This document shows positions 4,544 to 55,874 of a stretch of 64,000 nucleotides of DNA, piece by piece; within the stretch, counting starts at the first letter, position 1, and every line of letters starts with the position of its first letter. The translations under genes and the position numbers were made by a program. Source of the DNA: Escherichia phage FL38; sequence record PP400784, one strand, 5' to 3'. The notes under the pieces were generated by a model. That model was not told where the DNA came from. It did no database searches and saw nothing but the letters and a program-made list of their open reading frames with translations.

Positions 4544-7333
4544 ATGGCAGATTTAAGCAGAATCCAATTTAAACGCACTAGCACTAAAGGTCGTAAACCT
4601 GATGCTAGTACGATGAATCCGGGGGAATTGGCAATCAACCTTGCGGATCAATATCTTCTTACTAAAAATGATTCCGGTGCTATTATCAATTTAAGTTGTC
4701 CTCCTGTTTATGACCGCGATGTTACAATGGCGGGTAAGGTTAAAGGTAATAATTATATCTTAAGTAAAACCGCTAACTATCTGGAAGATCAGACCGCACG
4801 AGATCTTAATTACTTTGGTGCTTTCCGAACTAATGGACAAGATGGTCTTTTAGATCTAACTCTTAATGTTCCTCATTCTGCTGGCATTAATCATGGTCGA
4901 GGATTTACTTTCCGTTATGCGACTGGCGGATCTCGTGTTGAAACCTATGGGTATAATGCACAGGGACAAAAAGCATTTAGCTATAAAATGTATCACGAAG
5001 GTGATAAACCAACTCCAGGAGAATTGAACGTCTATAGCAAACAAGAAATTGACCGGATGTTTGTTAAGAACGTTAAAATGGTTGTTCCTTCTGGTGGTAC
5101 AAACCGTGGTTATTTTAAAATTGCATCCGCAATGATCCCGCAGAGTGGTCGGATGGCGTTTCTGCGAATCTATGGTGGTAATGGATATAATGTAAACTCA
5201 TATGACCAAGTTGATTTTCTTGAAATTGTTATTCGTAGTGGTAATAATAACCCTAAAGGCGTTAGTATTGCTGCATATCGTCGAAATTCTTTGAACGTCC
5301 ATGAAGTATTTGCAATTAATACTTCCGGTGATAGCTATGACATTTATGTTAACTATGGTCGTTACACTGATAACGTTATTGTAGAGTTTGGAAAAACTGT
5401 TGACGTCGCATTGACTGTTCATGATGTTCCTGAATTTTCGGCGACTAAACCAGAAACCGGAACTAAATTTGATGCTCGTGTTATTACGATGTTCAACACC
5501 GAAAACAAAGCCGGAACATTGATGTTTGATAATAACAATCAGTTAACCTATGATATTGTTAGCCTTAGCAATGGTCCTGATGATGTTAGAAATTATCTGC
5601 GTAAATTCCGAAGTAAAGCGGGTGAAATGATTTGGCATGAAACCGTTCAGGGTGCTGTATATCGTCTTGCTACTGGAACTACTGATTCTACGGAAGTTCT
5701 TAGAGTTGATTCTAACAGTGCTCTCCCGGGTAGCTATAAAGGATATGTAATTACTGGTAAAATGGAATTGCACGGTAGCGGTAGTGCGATGAATTTACAC
5801 CGCCAGACTGGTCAAGCTGCATATATGGCGTGGTGGGATCGTCGTGATGGTAAAAACCAACGTAGTGGTTATATCGGCCATGCGGATGGTACTACTGATG
5901 GTTTTGTGTGGCGTAATGATGTTGGTGCGAACTCATTTGATTTGGAAAGTAGTGGACAAGTAAATTTGACTACAGGAAAAACAAAAATTGTATATACCAA
6001 CGGACAATATTATTCCGCTAACTCTGATGCATTCCGTATGATTTACGGCAATTATGGCGCATTCTGGCGTAATGACGGCACTAAAGTTTATCTTCTTTCT
6101 ACTGCCGAAAATGATCGTTTTGGTGGATGGAACGGCAACCGACCATTCATTTACGATTTGACTTCCGGTAACGTTCAATTAGGCGGTGACGGTAACGAAG
6201 CTGCATTAACGTTAGAACGTGCAAGCAAAGCCGCTCGTTTTACGGGTGATGTTTATGTAGAAAAAGGTTTCCTTCATTTCTCTAGTGGACGATTAGGATC
6301 TCGTGATTTCTTTAAAATCAACCATTGGGGTGATAGCAATAACGGTCGTGATAACATTTTGCAGTTTGAAGACAATAGCGGTGCACACTTCACAACTGAA
6401 CGTAAAATGGCAACCGGTGAAATTACTGCGCGATTTAAAGGATTTGTGCGTGTAGAATCTGGCGAAATTACATTCCATGCTAACCGTGGTTCTTCTTCGC
6501 AATTTAGTCTCAATACATGGGGTAATGAATCACGAAAACAAGTTTTTGAATGTAAGGATGCAACAAGTTATCATTGGTATACCGAACGTACTGCGGGTGG
6601 AACTGGTCCGGTTAAGTTCTCTGTTGCAGGTTCTTTCTATAGCGGAAGCGATGCTAACGTAGGCGGTAGTCTGAATTTTGGTAATGCTATTCAACGCGGC
6701 GCTAGCGTCATTACTATAGATTCTGGTTCTGCGGGTGCTGGTTCTTTTGCATCTCAACATGATGATAACGTCAAAGCACCTATTTTCCAACGTTTAGACC
6801 GTGGTGATGCGTCTACATATGTTCCTTTGATCAAGCAACGTTATGTTCAAGGTGCAGTAACATTCTCGTTGGGTATGCTTCTTAATGAAGGTTCATGGCG
6901 AGTTCATGTTAAAGGTTCTGGTGTTGAATCTAATACTACCTTCTATAAAAACGGCGATTTCCAAGCTGGACGCAATGGTAACTTTAACGACGTTTACATT
7001 CGCTCTGATGCTCGCCTTAAAATCAACAAGGAAGAGTATAAGGAGAATGCCACTGATAAAGTTAATCGCTTGACGGTATACACCTATGACAAGGTTAAAT
7101 CTTTAACCGACCGTACTGTCATTGCTCATGAAGTTGGTATTATTGCTCAGGATCTTGAAAAAGAATTACCGGAAGCAGTAACAACTTCTAACATCGGCGA
7201 TCCCGATAAGCCAGAAGAGATCTTAACAATTTCTAACTCTGCTGTCAACGCTCTTTTAATTAAGGCGTTTCAGGAAATGAGCGAAGAATTGAATGCCGTT
7301 AAAGCTGAACTAGCGGAACTTAAAAAGAATTAA
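4544..7333 (+). CDS. 37: long tail fiber distal subunit (gp37-like) with a C-terminal intramolecular-chaperone-like domain, 929 aa
   Basis: ATG at 4544; synteny 34-35-36-37-t; motif YHEGDKPTPGEL near the N-terminus; the last ~110 aa begin with SDARLK, which matches the autoproteolytic chaperone domain of T5 pb1 and endosialidase tailspikes. Confidence 0.75.
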   Translation: MADLSRIQFKRTSTKGRKPDASTMNPGELAINLADQYLLTKNDSGAIINLSCPPVYDRDVTMAGKVKGNNYILSKTANYLEDQTARDLNYFGAFRTNGQDGLLDLTLNVPHSAGINHGRGFTFRYATGGSRVETYGYNAQGQKAFSYKMYHEGDKPTPGELNVYSKQEIDRMFVKNVKMVVPSGGTNRGYFKIASAMIPQSGRMAFLRIYGGNGYNVNSYDQVDFLEIVIRSGNNNPKGVSIAAYRRNSLNVHEVFAINTSGDSYDIYVNYGRYTDNVIVEFGKTVDVALTVHDVPEFSATKPETGTKFDARVITMFNTENKAGTLMFDNNNQLTYDIVSLSNGPDDVRNYLRKFRSKAGEMIWHETVQGAVYRLATGTTDSTEVLRVDSNSALPGSYKGYVITGKMELHGSGSAMNLHRQTGQAAYMAWWDRRDGKNQRSGYIGHADGTTDGFVWRNDVGANSFDLESSGQVNLTTGKTKIVYTNGQYYSANSDAFRMIYGNYGAFWRNDGTKVYLLSTAENDRFGGWNGNRPFIYDLTSGNVQLGGDGNEAALTLERASKAARFTGDVYVEKGFLHFSSGRLGSRDFFKINHWGDSNNGRDNILQFEDNSGAHFTTERKMATGEITARFKGFVRVESGEITFHANRGSSSQFSLNTWGNESRKQVFECKDATSYHWYTERTAGGTGPVKFSVAGSFYSGSDANVGGSLNFGNAIQRGASVITIDSGSAGAGSFASQHDDNVKAPIFQRLDRGDASTYVPLIKQRYVQGAVTFSLGMLLNEGSWRVHVKGSGVESNTTFYKNGDFQAGRNGNFNDVYIRSDARLKINKEEYKENATDKVNRLTVYTYDKVKSLTDRTVIAHEVGIIAQDLEKELPEAVTTSNIGDPDKPEEILTISNSAVNALLIKAFQEMSEELNAVKAELAELKKN
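7004..7333 (+). other. predicted intramolecular chaperone (peptidase S74-like) domain at the C-terminus of gp37
   Basis: RSDARLKINKEEYKEN...AELAELKKN; the Ser of SDARLK is codon 821 (7004-7006), in frame with the 4544 start. Confidence 0.6.
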
Positions 7334-9994: not shown

Positions 9995-10004
9995 GATGTA
10001 ATCC

Positions 10005-10196
10005 TCACTTATCGTTAAGAAGTTCTAAAACTTTCTGTCGTACTTTGTCAATATTAGTTGATTCAAAAACTGTACGGTATCCCCAGCTTTGACCGTATGA
10101 GCGCGAGCAATCCCCATATCCCCATTGTTCAACCTGATAGTATTCAAGGAATGGGTGCTGCCGAACTATGATACCATCGCGATTAAAAATTACCAT
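10005..10196 (-). CDS. hypothetical protein, 63 aa
   Basis: Track ORF in the gene train. Confidence 0.3.
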   Translation of the reverse strand: MVIFNRDGIIVRQHPFLEYYQVEQWGYGDCSRSYGQSWGYRTVFESTNIDKVRQKVLELLNDK

Positions 10197-10219
10197 AATA
10201 TAATCCTCACGTCAAAAAC

Positions 10220-10507
10220 TTATTTTCGGTTGTGGTCACGATATGTTTTAAAATATCCCTCGTACCACGGTAAAATATCTGGATTTTTACCACTATACAG
10301 ACATTTAACCATCATGTCAATAAGGCCATCTGGTGTTTGATAGTTTCCAGCTTTTATAAGCTCTTTGATTAAAATCTCTCTGTATATGTCTTTCGGATCT
10401 TCGTAATCAACTTGTATTGTGGTTGTGGTCTCATTCAATTTGGTTTCTGGAGTATCTCGCATTGCATCCCACCAATCTTTTGTGACCTTCATGTTATTGA
10501 ATTGCAT
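10220..10507 (-). CDS. hypothetical protein, 95 aa
   Basis: Track ORF in the gene train. Confidence 0.35.
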   Translation of the reverse strand: MQFNNMKVTKDWWDAMRDTPETKLNETTTTIQVDYEDPKDIYREILIKELIKAGNYQTPDGLIDMMVKCLYSGKNPDILPWYEGYFKTYRDHNRK

Positions 10508-10518
10508 AATTTAACCTC

Positions 10519-11277
10519 TTACTTGCAAACGTATTGATCTACATCAATTGCGCCACCGAATGTAGGGTGACGTTTTTCAAATCGAATAGTTCCGTCGTTT
10601 GGTTCGAAAACGGAGTATTCATATAGATCTTTCTTGCCAACATTCTTATAAAACCCGCCTTTAGTCATAACGGTTTCTTGTACGTTTGCTTTGTGTACGT
10701 TGTATTCGTCAATGTATACAAAATCAACCATCTTCCCATTTTTAATGGTTACTTTAAGATCTCCTGGCTGGTTTCCATATTTTGCATACAGTGGAGCTTC
10801 TTTAATTTTGGTGGAAATTCCATCTTTAATACTCCACTCATAACGAACGGTGCATTGATAGGTAAAAGTTTCGACCTTCGGTTCTTCCACCATTTTTTCT
10901 TCCTGTTTCGGTTGTTCTTCTTCAACCTTCGCAGAAGTCTCTGAATCGCTTTCTGACGCGGTTTCTTCTTTAGGTAATACATTCATCAAGTTTTGGATTT
11001 GAGCGTTGTATACAGCCTCCAGTGGCTGAATCTGCCCGATATTGATCATTGTATCACGAACAGTTTTATTCCAGTTGAGTTGCTCTTGTTTAAGAGACGG
11101 ATCAATCTTAACAGCCTTAACATATACTTCATGAAGTTTCGAATCCAGTGCGGAGATTGACTCATTAGCACAAATAAACTTCTCTGATTTGGTAGTGGCT
11201 TTAGCGCAATCAAAGGACGCAGCATTAGCACCGAAAGCAGTAGCGGAAAGAACGATAGCAGCGATAATGTTTTTCAT
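10519..11277 (-). CDS. secreted protein with an LprI/DUF1311-like (lysozyme-inhibitor-like) N-terminal domain, 252 aa
   Basis: ATG at 11277 with GAGGA; signal peptide MKNIIAAIVLSATAFGANA; then FDCAKA..SEKFIC....SALDSKL.EVY, which resembles the DUF1311 two-cysteine signature; acidic linker; own early promoter. Confidence 0.55.
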   Translation of the reverse strand: MKNIIAAIVLSATAFGANAASFDCAKATTKSEKFICANESISALDSKLHEVYVKAVKIDPSLKQEQLNWNKTVRDTMINIGQIQPLEAVYNAQIQNLMNVLPKEETASESDSETSAKVEEEQPKQEEKMVEEPKVETFTYQCTVRYEWSIKDGISTKIKEAPLYAKYGNQPGDLKVTIKNGKMVDFVYIDEYNVHKANVQETVMTKGGFYKNVGKKDLYEYSVFEPNDGTIRFEKRHPTFGGAIDVDQYVCK

Positions 11278-11311
11278 AATATATTCCTCAATGTTTTGTC
11301 TTGATGGGAGT

Positions 11312-11340
11312 ATCTTACTACTCCCTTAATCCGGTGTCAA
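11312..11340 (-). promoter_or_regulatory. early sigma70-type promoter (TTGACA-N17-TAAGAT) with inverted repeat GGGAGTA/TACTCCC over the -10
   Basis: Read on the minus strand; drives 10519..11277. Confidence 0.6.
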
Positions 11341-11346
11341 CTATTT

Positions 11347-11502
11347 TTAAATTTCTTCTACAGTAAAGTCTTCAATGTTATTGTGCTCGGAGAACGTTGC
11401 CAGACCAGCATTCCATGCATCATCCTCAGAGAAGAATACACCGTAACGTTCATATCCTTTAGCGCCTTCAAATTTAACCATTAATTTGTGAGTATGTTTC
11501 AT
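11347..11502 (-). CDS. hypothetical protein, 51 aa
   Basis: ATG at 11502 preceded by AAGGAGAATCAAA; track ORF extends further upstream from a non-ATG codon. Confidence 0.4.
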   Translation of the reverse strand: MKHTHKLMVKFEGAKGYERYGVFFSEDDAWNAGLATFSEHNNIEDFTVEEI

Positions 11503-11785: not shown

Positions 11786-11815
11786 GTGATTCTCCTTTCG
11801 TTTCGGTGTGGGAGT

Positions 11816-11844
11816 ATGTTAATACTCCCATTTCTTTACGTCAA
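11816..11844 (-). promoter_or_regulatory. early promoter TTGACG-N17-TAACAT with inverted repeat GGGAGTAT/ATACTCCC
   Basis: Drives 11573..11785. Confidence 0.55.
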
Positions 11845-11851
11845 CCAGTTT

Positions 11852-12094
11852 TTAGAAATTTTTCGCTTCTTCTTCGGTCATCATCACCGCGCATTCGTGC
11901 ATAACTTTGAAAACCGGATCAATCATATCGAATGCTTCGCGGGACAGTTTACGAGAAGCGATTTTGATTGCTTCTACGTCTTCTACTACAGGAACAAAAA
12001 CAGTTTTCAGTTCATCGAGAACGGCAGCTTCTTTTTCATTCAGGAAGATACCAGCGTCATACAGTGCAACTTCGATAACATTAACTTTAACCAT
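11852..12094 (-). CDS. hypothetical protein, 80 aa
   Basis: ATG at 12094 with GGAGGAATTAAA upstream. Confidence 0.4.
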   Translation of the reverse strand: MVKVNVIEVALYDAGIFLNEKEAAVLDELKTVFVPVVEDVEAIKIASRKLSREAFDMIDPVFKVMHECAVMMTEEEAKNF

Positions 12095-12127
12095 TTTAAT
12101 TCCTCCAGTTCGTTTAGGTATGGGAGT

Positions 12128-12156
12128 ATAATACTACCGATGACCTTTGGCGTCAA
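12128..12156 (-). promoter_or_regulatory. early promoter TTGACG-N17-TATTAT
   Basis: Drives 11852..12094. Confidence 0.5.
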
Positions 12157-12358
12157 CTGCTTTTTTATTATTTTCGTGAAAATTTTTCGTCGCCTCATGT
12201 GCTTTTCGCTGGGCTTCTTGTTGTGCTTGCTGGCGTGCTGCCTCTTGTGAAGCCATAACGGAAGCATTTGCAGCAGTTACAGCCGCTACCATCGCTGCGG
12301 TATTAGCATTTACAGTACATGCACTAGCCAGCAAAGCAATTGCAATCATTTTCTTCAT
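12134..12358 (-). CDS. small secreted protein or lipoprotein, 74 aa
   Basis: ATG at 12358; N-terminal signal peptide MKKMIAIALLASACTVNA, then a Q/A-rich helical region. Confidence 0.45.
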   Translation of the reverse strand: MKKMIAIALLASACTVNANTAAMVAAVTAANASVMASQEAARQQAQQEAQRKAHEATKNFHENNKKAVDAKGHR

Positions 12359-12525
12359 AGTTTCCCCTTTAGGTTATCTTCGACCTTCACCCATTCCGCG
12401 TATTCTTGCGCGGCTACTTTCGGATTTAGTCCGTCTTCGTACATTGCTTCAAGTAATGCTTCGTCGGTGGGCTTATACCCTAGATAAGCCTCCACCTGAT
12501 TTTTCCAAATTTTATACCAGTTCAT
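12355..12525 (-). CDS. hypothetical protein, about 56 aa
   Basis: Start moved to the in-frame ATG at 12525 (GGTGA upstream), just after the upstream gene's stop. Confidence 0.3.
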   Translation of the reverse strand: MNWYKIWKNQVEAYLGYKPTDEALLEAMYEDGLNPKVAAQEYAEWVKVEDNLKGKL

Positions 12526-37752: not shown

Positions 37753-37818
37753 ATAATCACCTCTCACAAATTACATCATTAAAACGGGGAGTATTTTATA
37801 CTCCCCACAAACATTATA

Positions 37819-53671: not shown

Positions 53672-53701
53672 AATATAATCCTCTCGTTGTTAAGTGGGAG
53701 T

Positions 53702-53729
53702 ATTATAGCATACTCCCTTCGCATGTCAA
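53702..53729 (-). promoter_or_regulatory. early promoter TTGACA-N16-TATAAT with inverted repeat GGGAGTA/TACTCCC around the -10
   Basis: The -35 overlaps the stop of the upstream gene; drives 53177..53671. Confidence 0.6.
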
Positions 53730-54904: not shown

Positions 54905-54935
54905 AATATAATCCTCTCGTTGTTTAGATGGGAGT

Positions 54936-54964
54936 ATCTTACTACTCCCGTTTCATCATGTCAA
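54936..54964 (-). promoter_or_regulatory. early promoter TTGACA-N17-TAAGAT with inverted repeat GGGAGTA/TACTCCC
   Basis: Nearly identical cassette to those at 11306-11340 and 55840-55874. Confidence 0.6.
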
Positions 54965-55814: not shown

Positions 55815-55845
55815 TGTTGATTCTCCTTCTTGATTAGATGGGAGT

Positions 55846-55874
55846 ATTTTACTACTCCCATTTCTTATTGTCAA
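55846..55874 (-). promoter_or_regulatory. early promoter TTGACA-N17-TAAAAT with inverted repeat GGGAGTA/TACTCCC
   Basis: Immediately downstream of the gp49 stop. Confidence 0.6.

Follow-up and report, generated by a model that had tools for sequence, protein, structure and literature searches.

A DUF1311 protein with a conserved N-terminal half and an exchangeable C-terminal domain in Escherichia phage FL38 and related phages

Introduction

Only a few of the phage proteins that exclude other phages from within the periplasm are understood mechanistically, e.g., Spackle (gp61.3) of phage T4 and Llp. Spackle, an early protein exported to the periplasm, is a single helical bundle of 97 amino acids (aa) that works by an allosteric mechanism (PMC7677548). 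The subject of this study is a gene of Escherichia phage FL38, located on the minus strand at positions 10519..11277 of a stretch of 64,000 nucleotides (nt) of its DNA (sequence record PP400784); this whole stretch is referred to as the window. An earlier note on the window described the product as an early-expressed, secreted protein with a DUF1311/LprI-like segment, which might inhibit the tail lysozyme of superinfecting phages in the manner of Spackle.

The DUF1311/LprI family (PF07007) is large, and there is almost no biochemistry behind the name "lysozyme inhibitor". In LprI of Mycobacterium tuberculosis (Rv1541c), which consists of a DUF1311 and an MliC domain, the inhibition of lysozyme is attributed to the C-terminal MliC domain, not to DUF1311, in the passage of PMC7933661 that deals with it. 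The periplasmic DUF1311 protein ScwA raises the level of the lytic transglycosylase MltD, and its overproduction lyses the cells (PMC7933661). Etsi4, a stand-alone member of the family from E. coli O157:H7, protects cells against Etse4, a periplasm-acting effector of a type VI secretion system (T6SS), for which the authors named the cell wall as the target (PMC12981562). Furthermore, genes for LprI domains adjoin those for lysozyme-like or LysM/transglycosylase T6SS effectors in Pantoea and in Salmonella Dublin (PMC9796082; PMC8867033). What these cases have in common is an interaction with periplasmic peptidoglycan glycosidases. The name of the family overstates its evidence. Also suited for close comparison are the β-barrel proteins that inhibit peptidoglycan hydrolases in the periplasm, i.e., PliC/MliC, ACP of Neisseria and PhiA of Brucella.

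The DUF1311 resemblance of the orthologous protein of phage RB49 is already present in the literature and in databases and is not new. RB49ORF260c was listed in 2006 with a weak DUF1311 match (PMC1524935); since this was the one DUF1311 match of RB49, it was equated with the gene described here, although the open reading frame (ORF) number differs slightly. In UniProt, the RB49 protein (Q7Y3G7) is named [quoted passage not shown]. New are the division of the gene into a constant half and a cassette half, the fact that virulent and temperate phages share it, the PliC-like barrel of orphan sequence in its product, and the absence of Spackle from the one complete Krischvirus genome that was searched.

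A constant half and a cassette half

The gene is a single ORF with an ATG start codon and 252 sense codons followed by a stop codon. It is embedded in DNA that is 93-98% identical to that of RB49-like, T4-type coliphages of the genus Krischvirus, and its product shares 98% identity with RB49p262. The orthologues in RB49 and phi1 (RB49p262/phi1p262; UniProt Q7Y3G7) are annotated as "hypothetical protein", and the matching PHROG (14799; E=2.5e-154) has no assigned function.

Alignment of the homologues showed that residues 1 to ~125, i.e., the signal peptide, the DUF1311 domain and an acidic linker, are near-identical. The remainder of the protein falls into discrete classes that are very divergent or cannot be aligned, with only C142, C251 and a few core residues kept. 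The transition is visible in the DNA as well. The window and phages phi1 and JSE are ~95% identical on both sides of the gene and in its 5' half; this identity is lost at ~10870-10876 and is back at the stop codon. The RB49-type C-terminal domain is itself 95-99% identical at the nucleotide level across 44 phage records. Variation of the C-terminal domain is thus allelic or cassette-like and not continuous. In the 5' half, the proportion of synonymous differences (pS) is 0.08-0.15, that of nonsynonymous differences (pN) 0.004-0.018 and the pN/pS ratio 0.03-0.14, which points to strong purifying selection. Thus, conservation of the 5' half reflects function and is not merely recent. More distant relatives in Klebsiella phages, Aeromonas phages and SSU5 have the same layout, with a signal peptide, a domain starting with AASFDC, a charged linker and a C-terminal domain of ~110 aa with two cysteines. 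However, the sequence of this C-terminal domain is a third one, unrelated to the other alleles.

The constant half begins with a putative Sec signal peptide for signal peptidase I (aa 1-19, 11221..11277, minus strand), with predicted cleavage between ANA and AS. This call is based on composition and on the -3/-1 rule: a lysine at position 2 is followed by a 13-residue hydrophobic core (IIAAIVLSATAFG; mean Kyte-Doolittle hydropathy 2.28), and A-N-A, with A as the next residue, occupies the positions up to -1. Neither a lipobox nor a further hydrophobic stretch is present in the 252-aa protein. The AASFDC junction is invariant among divergent phage homologues.

The N-terminal domain that follows (aa 20-103, 10969..11220, minus strand) is near-invariant across the alleles. 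It matches PF07007 with E=1.4e-4 and 22.6 bits, just above the gathering cut-off of 22, over aa 24-76 and positions 1-71 of the 106 in the profile. Five homologues, i.e., the phi1-type protein and those of an E. coli prophage, a Klebsiella Marfavirus, an Aeromonas Ceceduovirus and Salmonella phage SSU5, scored 23.1-30 bits, and in every phage homologue only positions 1-71/72 of 106 are covered. In a reciprocal search with a profile of four divergent phage N-terminal domains, 235 proteins were retrieved at E<=1e-3; of the 120 that were listed, most are single-domain PF07007 proteins or carry the LprI family name. Thus, the protein is a member of the DUF1311/LprI family. In an AlphaFold2 model, residues 30-58, 62-80 and 84-98 form helices that are packed into a three-helix bundle, with values of the predicted local distance difference test (pLDDT) of 55-73. 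C24 and C36 are the only cysteines of this domain and are both invariant across the homologues. From the model, the phage domain looks like a shortened, three-helix form of DUF1311. The profile of the N-terminal domain found no match in the PDB.

The likeness to Etsi4 and other DUF1311 proteins extends to the order of the motifs, with the signal peptide directly followed by a helical domain with FDC-x11-C, LD..L...Y and QR.W, and to a predicted periplasmic location. Both groups pass the Pfam threshold and are joined by the profile searches. In contrast to those proteins, the phage domain matches only positions 1-71 of 106 and has no further cysteine, and it is fused via the acidic linker to an extra domain.

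Codon 67 (11077-11079), which lies within the conserved QR.W motif, encodes Leu in the window and Arg in every other aligned homologue, including those of Klebsiella phages, Aeromonas phages and SSU5. This substitution lowers the Pfam score to the threshold. It may either affect function or be an error of sequencing.

The linker (aa 104-134, 10876..10968, minus strand) has an isoelectric point of 4.15, with 12 D/E against 4 K/R, and is predicted to be disordered (pLDDT <50). It is conserved together with the N-terminal domain, and the upstream breakpoint of recombination, at ~10870-10907, falls at the 3' end of the linker. Thus, the 252-aa ORF, the features of a cleavable signal peptide, the two-cysteine LprI/DUF1311-like segment, the acidic linker and the second domain that the earlier note had read from the sequence were all recovered.

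The C-terminal domain

The allelic C-terminal domain (aa 135-252, 10522..10875, minus strand) is a sequence orphan. Sequence searches of Pfam, NCBIfam and the PDB gave no match for it, and neither the full protein nor the profile of the C-terminal domain matched PDB sequences. PADLOC gave no meaningful match and NCBIfam none for the protein. When a HMMER profile of 10 C-terminal domain sequences was run exhaustively against 1.84 billion representative proteins, it found its own family and one repeat protein. The latter, the PKD-repeat protein P0021, shares only a short 'YEWxxKDGT' repeat with the domain, and the match was treated as spurious.

The AlphaFold model of the domain (pLDDT ~90) is all-β and shows a soluble, antiparallel barrel, in which a long first strand and a short helix are followed by seven to eight strands (9 strands overall). 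The invariant C142 and C251 are located in the first and the last strand, respectively, and a disulfide bond between them is proposed on the basis of this model. A model of the prophage/JSE-type allele, although of lower confidence, has the same order of secondary-structure elements. Conservation is similar in strands and loops (0.59 vs. 0.54), without clear hypervariable loops, and is uninformative in this respect. The possibility of an outer-membrane barrel was rejected, because the strands are charged on alternate faces, a C-terminal aromatic β-signal is absent, and the conserved cysteine pair suggests a disulfide bond.

Among 48,164 PDB chains, the nearest neighbours of this fold are small barrels, and the top 13 include three inhibitors of peptidoglycan hydrolases. 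The surface-exposed or periplasmic binding barrels NHBA, fHbp, TbpB and ACP are also among the neighbours. Foldseek found only weak barrel matches in the PDB, none below E=1e-3, and a structure search of BFVD returned only uncharacterised phage barrels or lipoproteins and the RB49 orthologue itself. The resemblance of the modelled barrel to periplasmic inhibitors of peptidoglycan hydrolases is suggestive, but restricted to the level of the fold. A DUF1311 domain followed by a small barrel is also the layout reported for M. tuberculosis LprI in the passage mentioned above, but the phage protein is not a lipoprotein and its barrel can be replaced by unrelated domains.

Exchange between virulent and temperate phages

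Relatives of the protein are encoded in 113 phage records, which comprise Krischvirus, Klebsiella and Aeromonas phages and a few others; 56 Krischvirus records have kept the full-length gene. In addition, a copy is present on the chromosome of E. coli, where the 95% DNA identity starts 6 nt upstream of the ATG and goes no further than window position 10907. Window positions 11283-10907 are ~95% identical to positions 9995-10371 of an E. coli segment that belongs to a lambdoid prophage remnant beside hicAB. This match is a clear case of sub-genic exchange between phages of different lifestyles. The conserved half was found in 26 of 5,426 complete E. coli genomes. The same C-domain alleles occur in E. 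coli prophages of ~35 kb, in which the gene is located at the prophage end, adjoining the gene for the small terminase subunit, and is transcribed outward.

A P22-like prophage carries a single-domain relative in its PL early operon. This relative is a DUF1311 protein of 116 aa, encoded on E. coli contig SQOY01000028.1 (6001-6351) by the last gene called on the contig, on the same strand as and after genes for cIII, kil, a Rad52-family protein, SSB and an anti-RecBCD protein. Thus, unrelated types of phages repeatedly carry secreted DUF1311 proteins as early accessory genes.

Expression

The gene is on the strand of the early genes. On one side of it is gene 52 (topoisomerase) and on the other the holin gene t, which has the opposite orientation and is 2.2 kb away. 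The region between rIIB and t has been described as hyperplastic in RB49 and phi1, and "promoter-early stem-loop" (PeSL) cassettes are found in such regions (PMC2839356). In reporter assays, representative PeSLs of these two phages acted strongly as promoters and terminators (PMC2839356).

Such a cassette was found directly upstream of the gene at 11306..11349 (minus strand) in a promoter scan, with 10/12 matches. It consists of an AT-rich upstream tract (11341-11349), a -35 element TTGACA (11335-11340), a 17-nt spacer, and a -10 element TAAGAT (11312-11317), which is held in the loop and the 3' arm of a stem-loop, GGGAGTA-GTAAGA-TACTCCC (11306-11325). A Shine-Dalgarno sequence, GAGGAA (11284..11289, minus strand), was read 8 nt upstream of the ATG. 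All properties of the published definition are present, i.e., the AT-rich tract, the sigma-70 consensus promoter, the stem-loop, the intergenic position and the location in a hyperplastic region (definition in PMC2839356). The hairpin GGGAGTA-N5-8-TACTCCC occurs six times in the window (11306-11325, 11810-11829, 37787-37805, 53696-53717, 54930-54949 and 55840-55859), whereas zero copies are expected by chance. Two copies were inspected, and each encloses the -10 box of a TTGAC[AG]-17-TAxxAT promoter. The six hairpins match the PeSL cassettes that were published for RB49 and phi1. Because of this promoter directly upstream and the position on the early strand, the gene is probably transcribed early, a well-founded view as far as promoter anatomy goes and in line with the earlier note.

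Like the PeSL-flanked ORFan cassettes described previously (Arbiol et al. 2010), the gene is part of a hyperplastic region and is preceded by a PeSL. In contrast to those, the unit of exchange is not a whole PeSL-bounded ORF but only the 3' half of the ORF, with one breakpoint within the coding sequence, where the linker is encoded, and the other at the stop codon.

Relation to Spackle and gp5

When the sequence of T4 Spackle, which matched T4 orf 61.3 at 100%, was used in a tblastn search, neither the window nor the syntenic 61-41 interval of RB49 nor one complete Krischvirus genome contained a homologue. The sole match (E=0.04-0.05) lies within the annotated coordinates of RB49 gene 41 and is due to chance, and the small ORFs at positions syntenic to Spackle gave no match to a Pfam family. 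The complete Krischvirus genome (Krischvirus RB49, OZ035808.1) contains one T4-lysozyme-type sequence, i.e., the middle domain (roughly residues 190-360) of the 599-aa gp5 (142777-144582), and no endolysin of the gene-e type. Its endolysin must therefore be of another class, and an inhibitor directed against lysozymes of the T4 type would act on the tail spikes of incoming phages but spare the lysis of the phage's own host. For RB49, an ORF resembling D-Ala-D-Ala carboxypeptidases was listed (PMC1524935).

No T-even genome was noticed among the 113 records that contain a relative; the counts per genus, from which this was read instead of from the full list, leave no room for one. Thus, the Krischvirus protein and Spackle appear to have complementary distributions among the coliphages of the Straboviridae, which is circumstantial support for a shared role. 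The two proteins are not related in sequence or fold: Spackle is a single domain of 97 aa, whereas the window protein, with 252 aa, combines a helical N-terminal domain with a β-barrel. The likeness is that both would be early proteins acting after export to the periplasm. A protein annotated as "spackle" in a Klebsiella phage that also carries the DUF1311 protein resembles T4 Spackle only over its first 38 residues.

Possible functions

Tentatively, the protein may be an exported, periplasmic two-module protein that binds and neutralises incoming peptidoglycan hydrolases, most likely the gp5-type tail lysozyme of superinfecting phages. The gene would be transcribed from its own sigma-70 promoter in the PeSL, probably early in infection, and the product would be exported by the Sec machinery and cut after A19. 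In the periplasm, the cysteine pairs C24/C36 and C142/C251 would probably be oxidised to disulfides. The three-helix DUF1311 domain and the acidic linker would constitute the constant module, whilst the disulfide-clamped β-barrel would be an exchangeable specificity or inhibitor module, with discrete alleles that pass back and forth between virulent Krischviruses and prophages of E. coli. Together, they would bind and neutralise a peptidoglycan-cleaving enzyme that enters the periplasm from outside, with the gp5-type lysozyme as the first candidate; other periplasmic targets are possible. The outcome would be exclusion or resistance to lysis from without, a function analogous, but not homologous, to that of Spackle.

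Several observations are consistent with this proposal. Among them are the architecture with its export signals, the DUF1311 membership, the repeated link of DUF1311 proteins to antagonism of peptidoglycan hydrolases (Etsi4, the cases in Pantoea and S. Dublin, and ScwA), the fold neighbours of the barrel and the parallel to the layout of LprI. Discrete C-domain alleles on a constant half kept by purifying selection are the pattern expected for antagonism that tracks its target. The gene is found at typical sites of exclusion genes in phages of both lifestyles, i.e., in the early hyperplastic region of Krischvirus, at the prophage end beside the small terminase subunit and, as a single-domain relative, in the PL operon of a P22-like prophage. 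Finally, the niche of Spackle is open in the complete Krischvirus genome, which has gp5 with a T4-lysozyme-type domain, but neither a second enzyme of this type nor Spackle.

Against this proposal weigh the following points. Binding, inhibition and exclusion are all proposed by analogy. The Pfam match is borderline and covers two thirds of the PF07007 model, and PF07007 itself has no experimental support as a lysozyme inhibitor; ScwA gave no protection against lysozyme (PMC7933661). Concerning the barrel, Pfam gave no match to PF09864 (MliC/PliC) at E<=10, the profile search of the PDB with the C-terminal domain did not find MliC, and in hhalign this profile matched E. coli MliC, the sequence of which was verified against PDB 2f09, with a probability of only 1%. 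Homology to MliC was therefore rejected, despite a shared 'YQC' and a C-terminal cysteine. The conserved motifs by which MliC/PliC contact lysozyme, SxSGAxY and YxxxTKG, are both visible in the MliC sequence used and are absent from the C-terminal domain; the single TKG that it contains, at aa 205-207, is not kept in other alleles. Furthermore, with its 95-99% conservation in 44 phage records, the RB49-type domain is not continuously hypervariable. Moreover, since the Klebsiella, Aeromonas and SSU5 relatives have a third, unrelated C-terminal domain, the barrel cannot be essential to a mechanism common to all. Thus, the anatomy given in the earlier note was right, but its reading as a Spackle-like lysozyme inhibitor has circumstantial support and suffers from the fact that, as far as the cited passage on LprI goes, inhibition belongs to MliC and not to DUF1311. 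By analogy with Etsi4, and with gp5 present and Spackle absent in a complete Krischvirus genome and the gene apparently lacking in T-even phages, it stays plausible.

Rather unlikely, though next in order, is that the protein is a phage-carried orphan immunity protein, which protects the lysogen, or the infected cell until burst, against the periplasm-acting peptidoglycan-hydrolase effectors of neighbouring bacteria, such as T6SS effectors or muramidase bacteriocins. Indeed, T6SS immunity, i.e., Etsi4 against Etse4, is the one role of a stand-alone DUF1311 protein that has support from experiments (PMC12981562), and the cases in Pantoea and Salmonella are based on context. The moron position at the end of E. 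coli prophages would fit this role, and discrete alleles resemble arrays of orphan immunity genes. However, no effector gene is adjacent in any of the phage contexts examined, where the neighbours are small phage ORFs, the small terminase subunit gene or early-operon genes. Also, the T6SS immunity proteins with DUF1311 are single-domain proteins (e.g., of 146 aa), whereas the window protein has an extra domain. The infection cycle of a virulent phage is short, and the benefit of immunity to such a phage is doubtful, yet the full-length gene is retained in the 56 Krischvirus records.

A role like that of ScwA, in which the protein modulates cell-wall enzymes of the host or the phage from inside the cell, is improbable. 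The protein could act on murein hydrolysis as a buffer, or could bind to one of the lytic transglycosylases of the host, e.g., MltD, or make it more stable. It would thereby tune envelope remodelling or the timing of lysis and not exclude other phages. The effects of ScwA on MltD and on cell lysis described above argue for such a role, and so does the distance of 2.2 kb from the holin gene in the rIIB-t region. Conserved host enzymes, however, do not explain the wholesale replacement of the C-terminal domain by unrelated alleles, lysis inhibition in RB49 is already provided for by rI and t, and in a hyperplastic region, nearness to t is probably a coincidence.

Equally doubtful is exclusion via a target that is unrelated to peptidoglycan. 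In this case, the barrel would bind either a receptor in the outer membrane, in the way that FhuA is bound by Llp or Cor, or a tail or ejection protein of an incoming phage, and DUF1311 would only be a conserved handle through which the protein dimerises or is anchored. Binders of changeable specificity are built in this way, from a constant handle and a head that can be exchanged, and the fold neighbours NHBA, fHbp, TbpB and ACP are binding barrels at the surface or in the periplasm. A lipobox for membrane anchoring is lacking, though, and the C-domain alleles assort independently of the receptor-binding tips of gp37. Thus, the gp37 tip of the window is found also in kaaroe, which has an RB49-type C-terminal domain, and in MIZ2/3, which have a different allele, whilst other phages with the RB49-type domain have other tips. 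Because of this independent assortment, masking of a receptor that tracks the phage's own adhesin appears less likely.

The distal part of gene 37 itself, the long-tail-fibre gene (4544..7333, plus strand), is highly mosaic. Among 76 phage records matched, the segment 6300-6950 is fully matched only in kaaroe (99.6%) and MIZ2/3/6 (~94%), whereas the last ~350 nt are widely shared, including a 75% match to T-even gene 37.

Very improbable, finally, is a small-molecule-binding periplasmic protein with a calycin-like pocket and without a role in conflicts with phages or bacteria: fatty-acid-binding proteins, lipocalins and the nucleotide-binding barrel of Cap15 are among the fold matches, but these are weak (Foldseek E>0.007; template modelling (TM) score <0.3 when the full 252 aa of the query are used for normalisation), a ligand-binding motif was not recognised, and replacement by unrelated domains fits a protein-protein conflict better.

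If neutralisation of incoming hydrolases is considered further, an ambitious version of it, which we regard as unlikely, would be a polymorphic periplasmic exclusion system of virulent and temperate enterobacterial phages, with the window protein as its founding member, in which a DUF1311 "handle" carries interchangeable inhibitor "heads", each blocking the tail lysozyme or another entry component of different competitors. The barrel would then be the first PliC-like inhibitor of muramidases with the T4-lysozyme fold and would fill the role of Spackle in T4-type phages devoid of it. Exclusion of competitors would be relevant to the design of phage cocktails with Krischviruses and would explain why the same half-gene is found at ~95% DNA identity in lytic T4-type phages and E. 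coli prophages. If exclusion fails as an explanation, the gene would be one more ORFan of a hyperplastic region with a misleading domain name. In either case, the natural alleles are tractable material for domain swaps that address the binding partner of DUF1311 and the specificity of the heads.

Neighbouring genes

The gene downstream (10220-10507, minus strand) is the orthologue of RB49p261 and encodes a protein of 95 aa (PHROG 15915, without assigned function). Its DNA is only ~70% identical to that of its phi1 counterpart, whereas the flanks are ~92% identical. In JSE, the DNA realigns with the window from the stop codon of the DUF1311 gene, with ~88% identity. Thus, divergence beside the swapped C-terminal domain is not consistent from phage to phage. 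The possibility that p261 and the DUF1311 gene form a polymorphic toxin/immunity pair was rejected: as judged by eye, p261 has no hydrophobic N-terminus, and JSE, with another type of C-terminal domain, realigns from the stop codon at 88%, which argues against consistent co-replacement.

Upstream, a stretch of ~500 bp (11866-12367) is absent in RB49, phi1 and JSE, the alignments of which skip from 12368 to 11865. It is edged by a PeSL hairpin and contains two small ORFs on the minus strand, at 11852..12094 (80 aa) and 12134..12358 (74 aa). The product of the latter has no PHROG match and starts with a hydrophobic, signal-like or lipoprotein-like sequence (MKKMIAIALLASAC). The stretch has the appearance of a further exported ORFan that was inserted by way of a PeSL.

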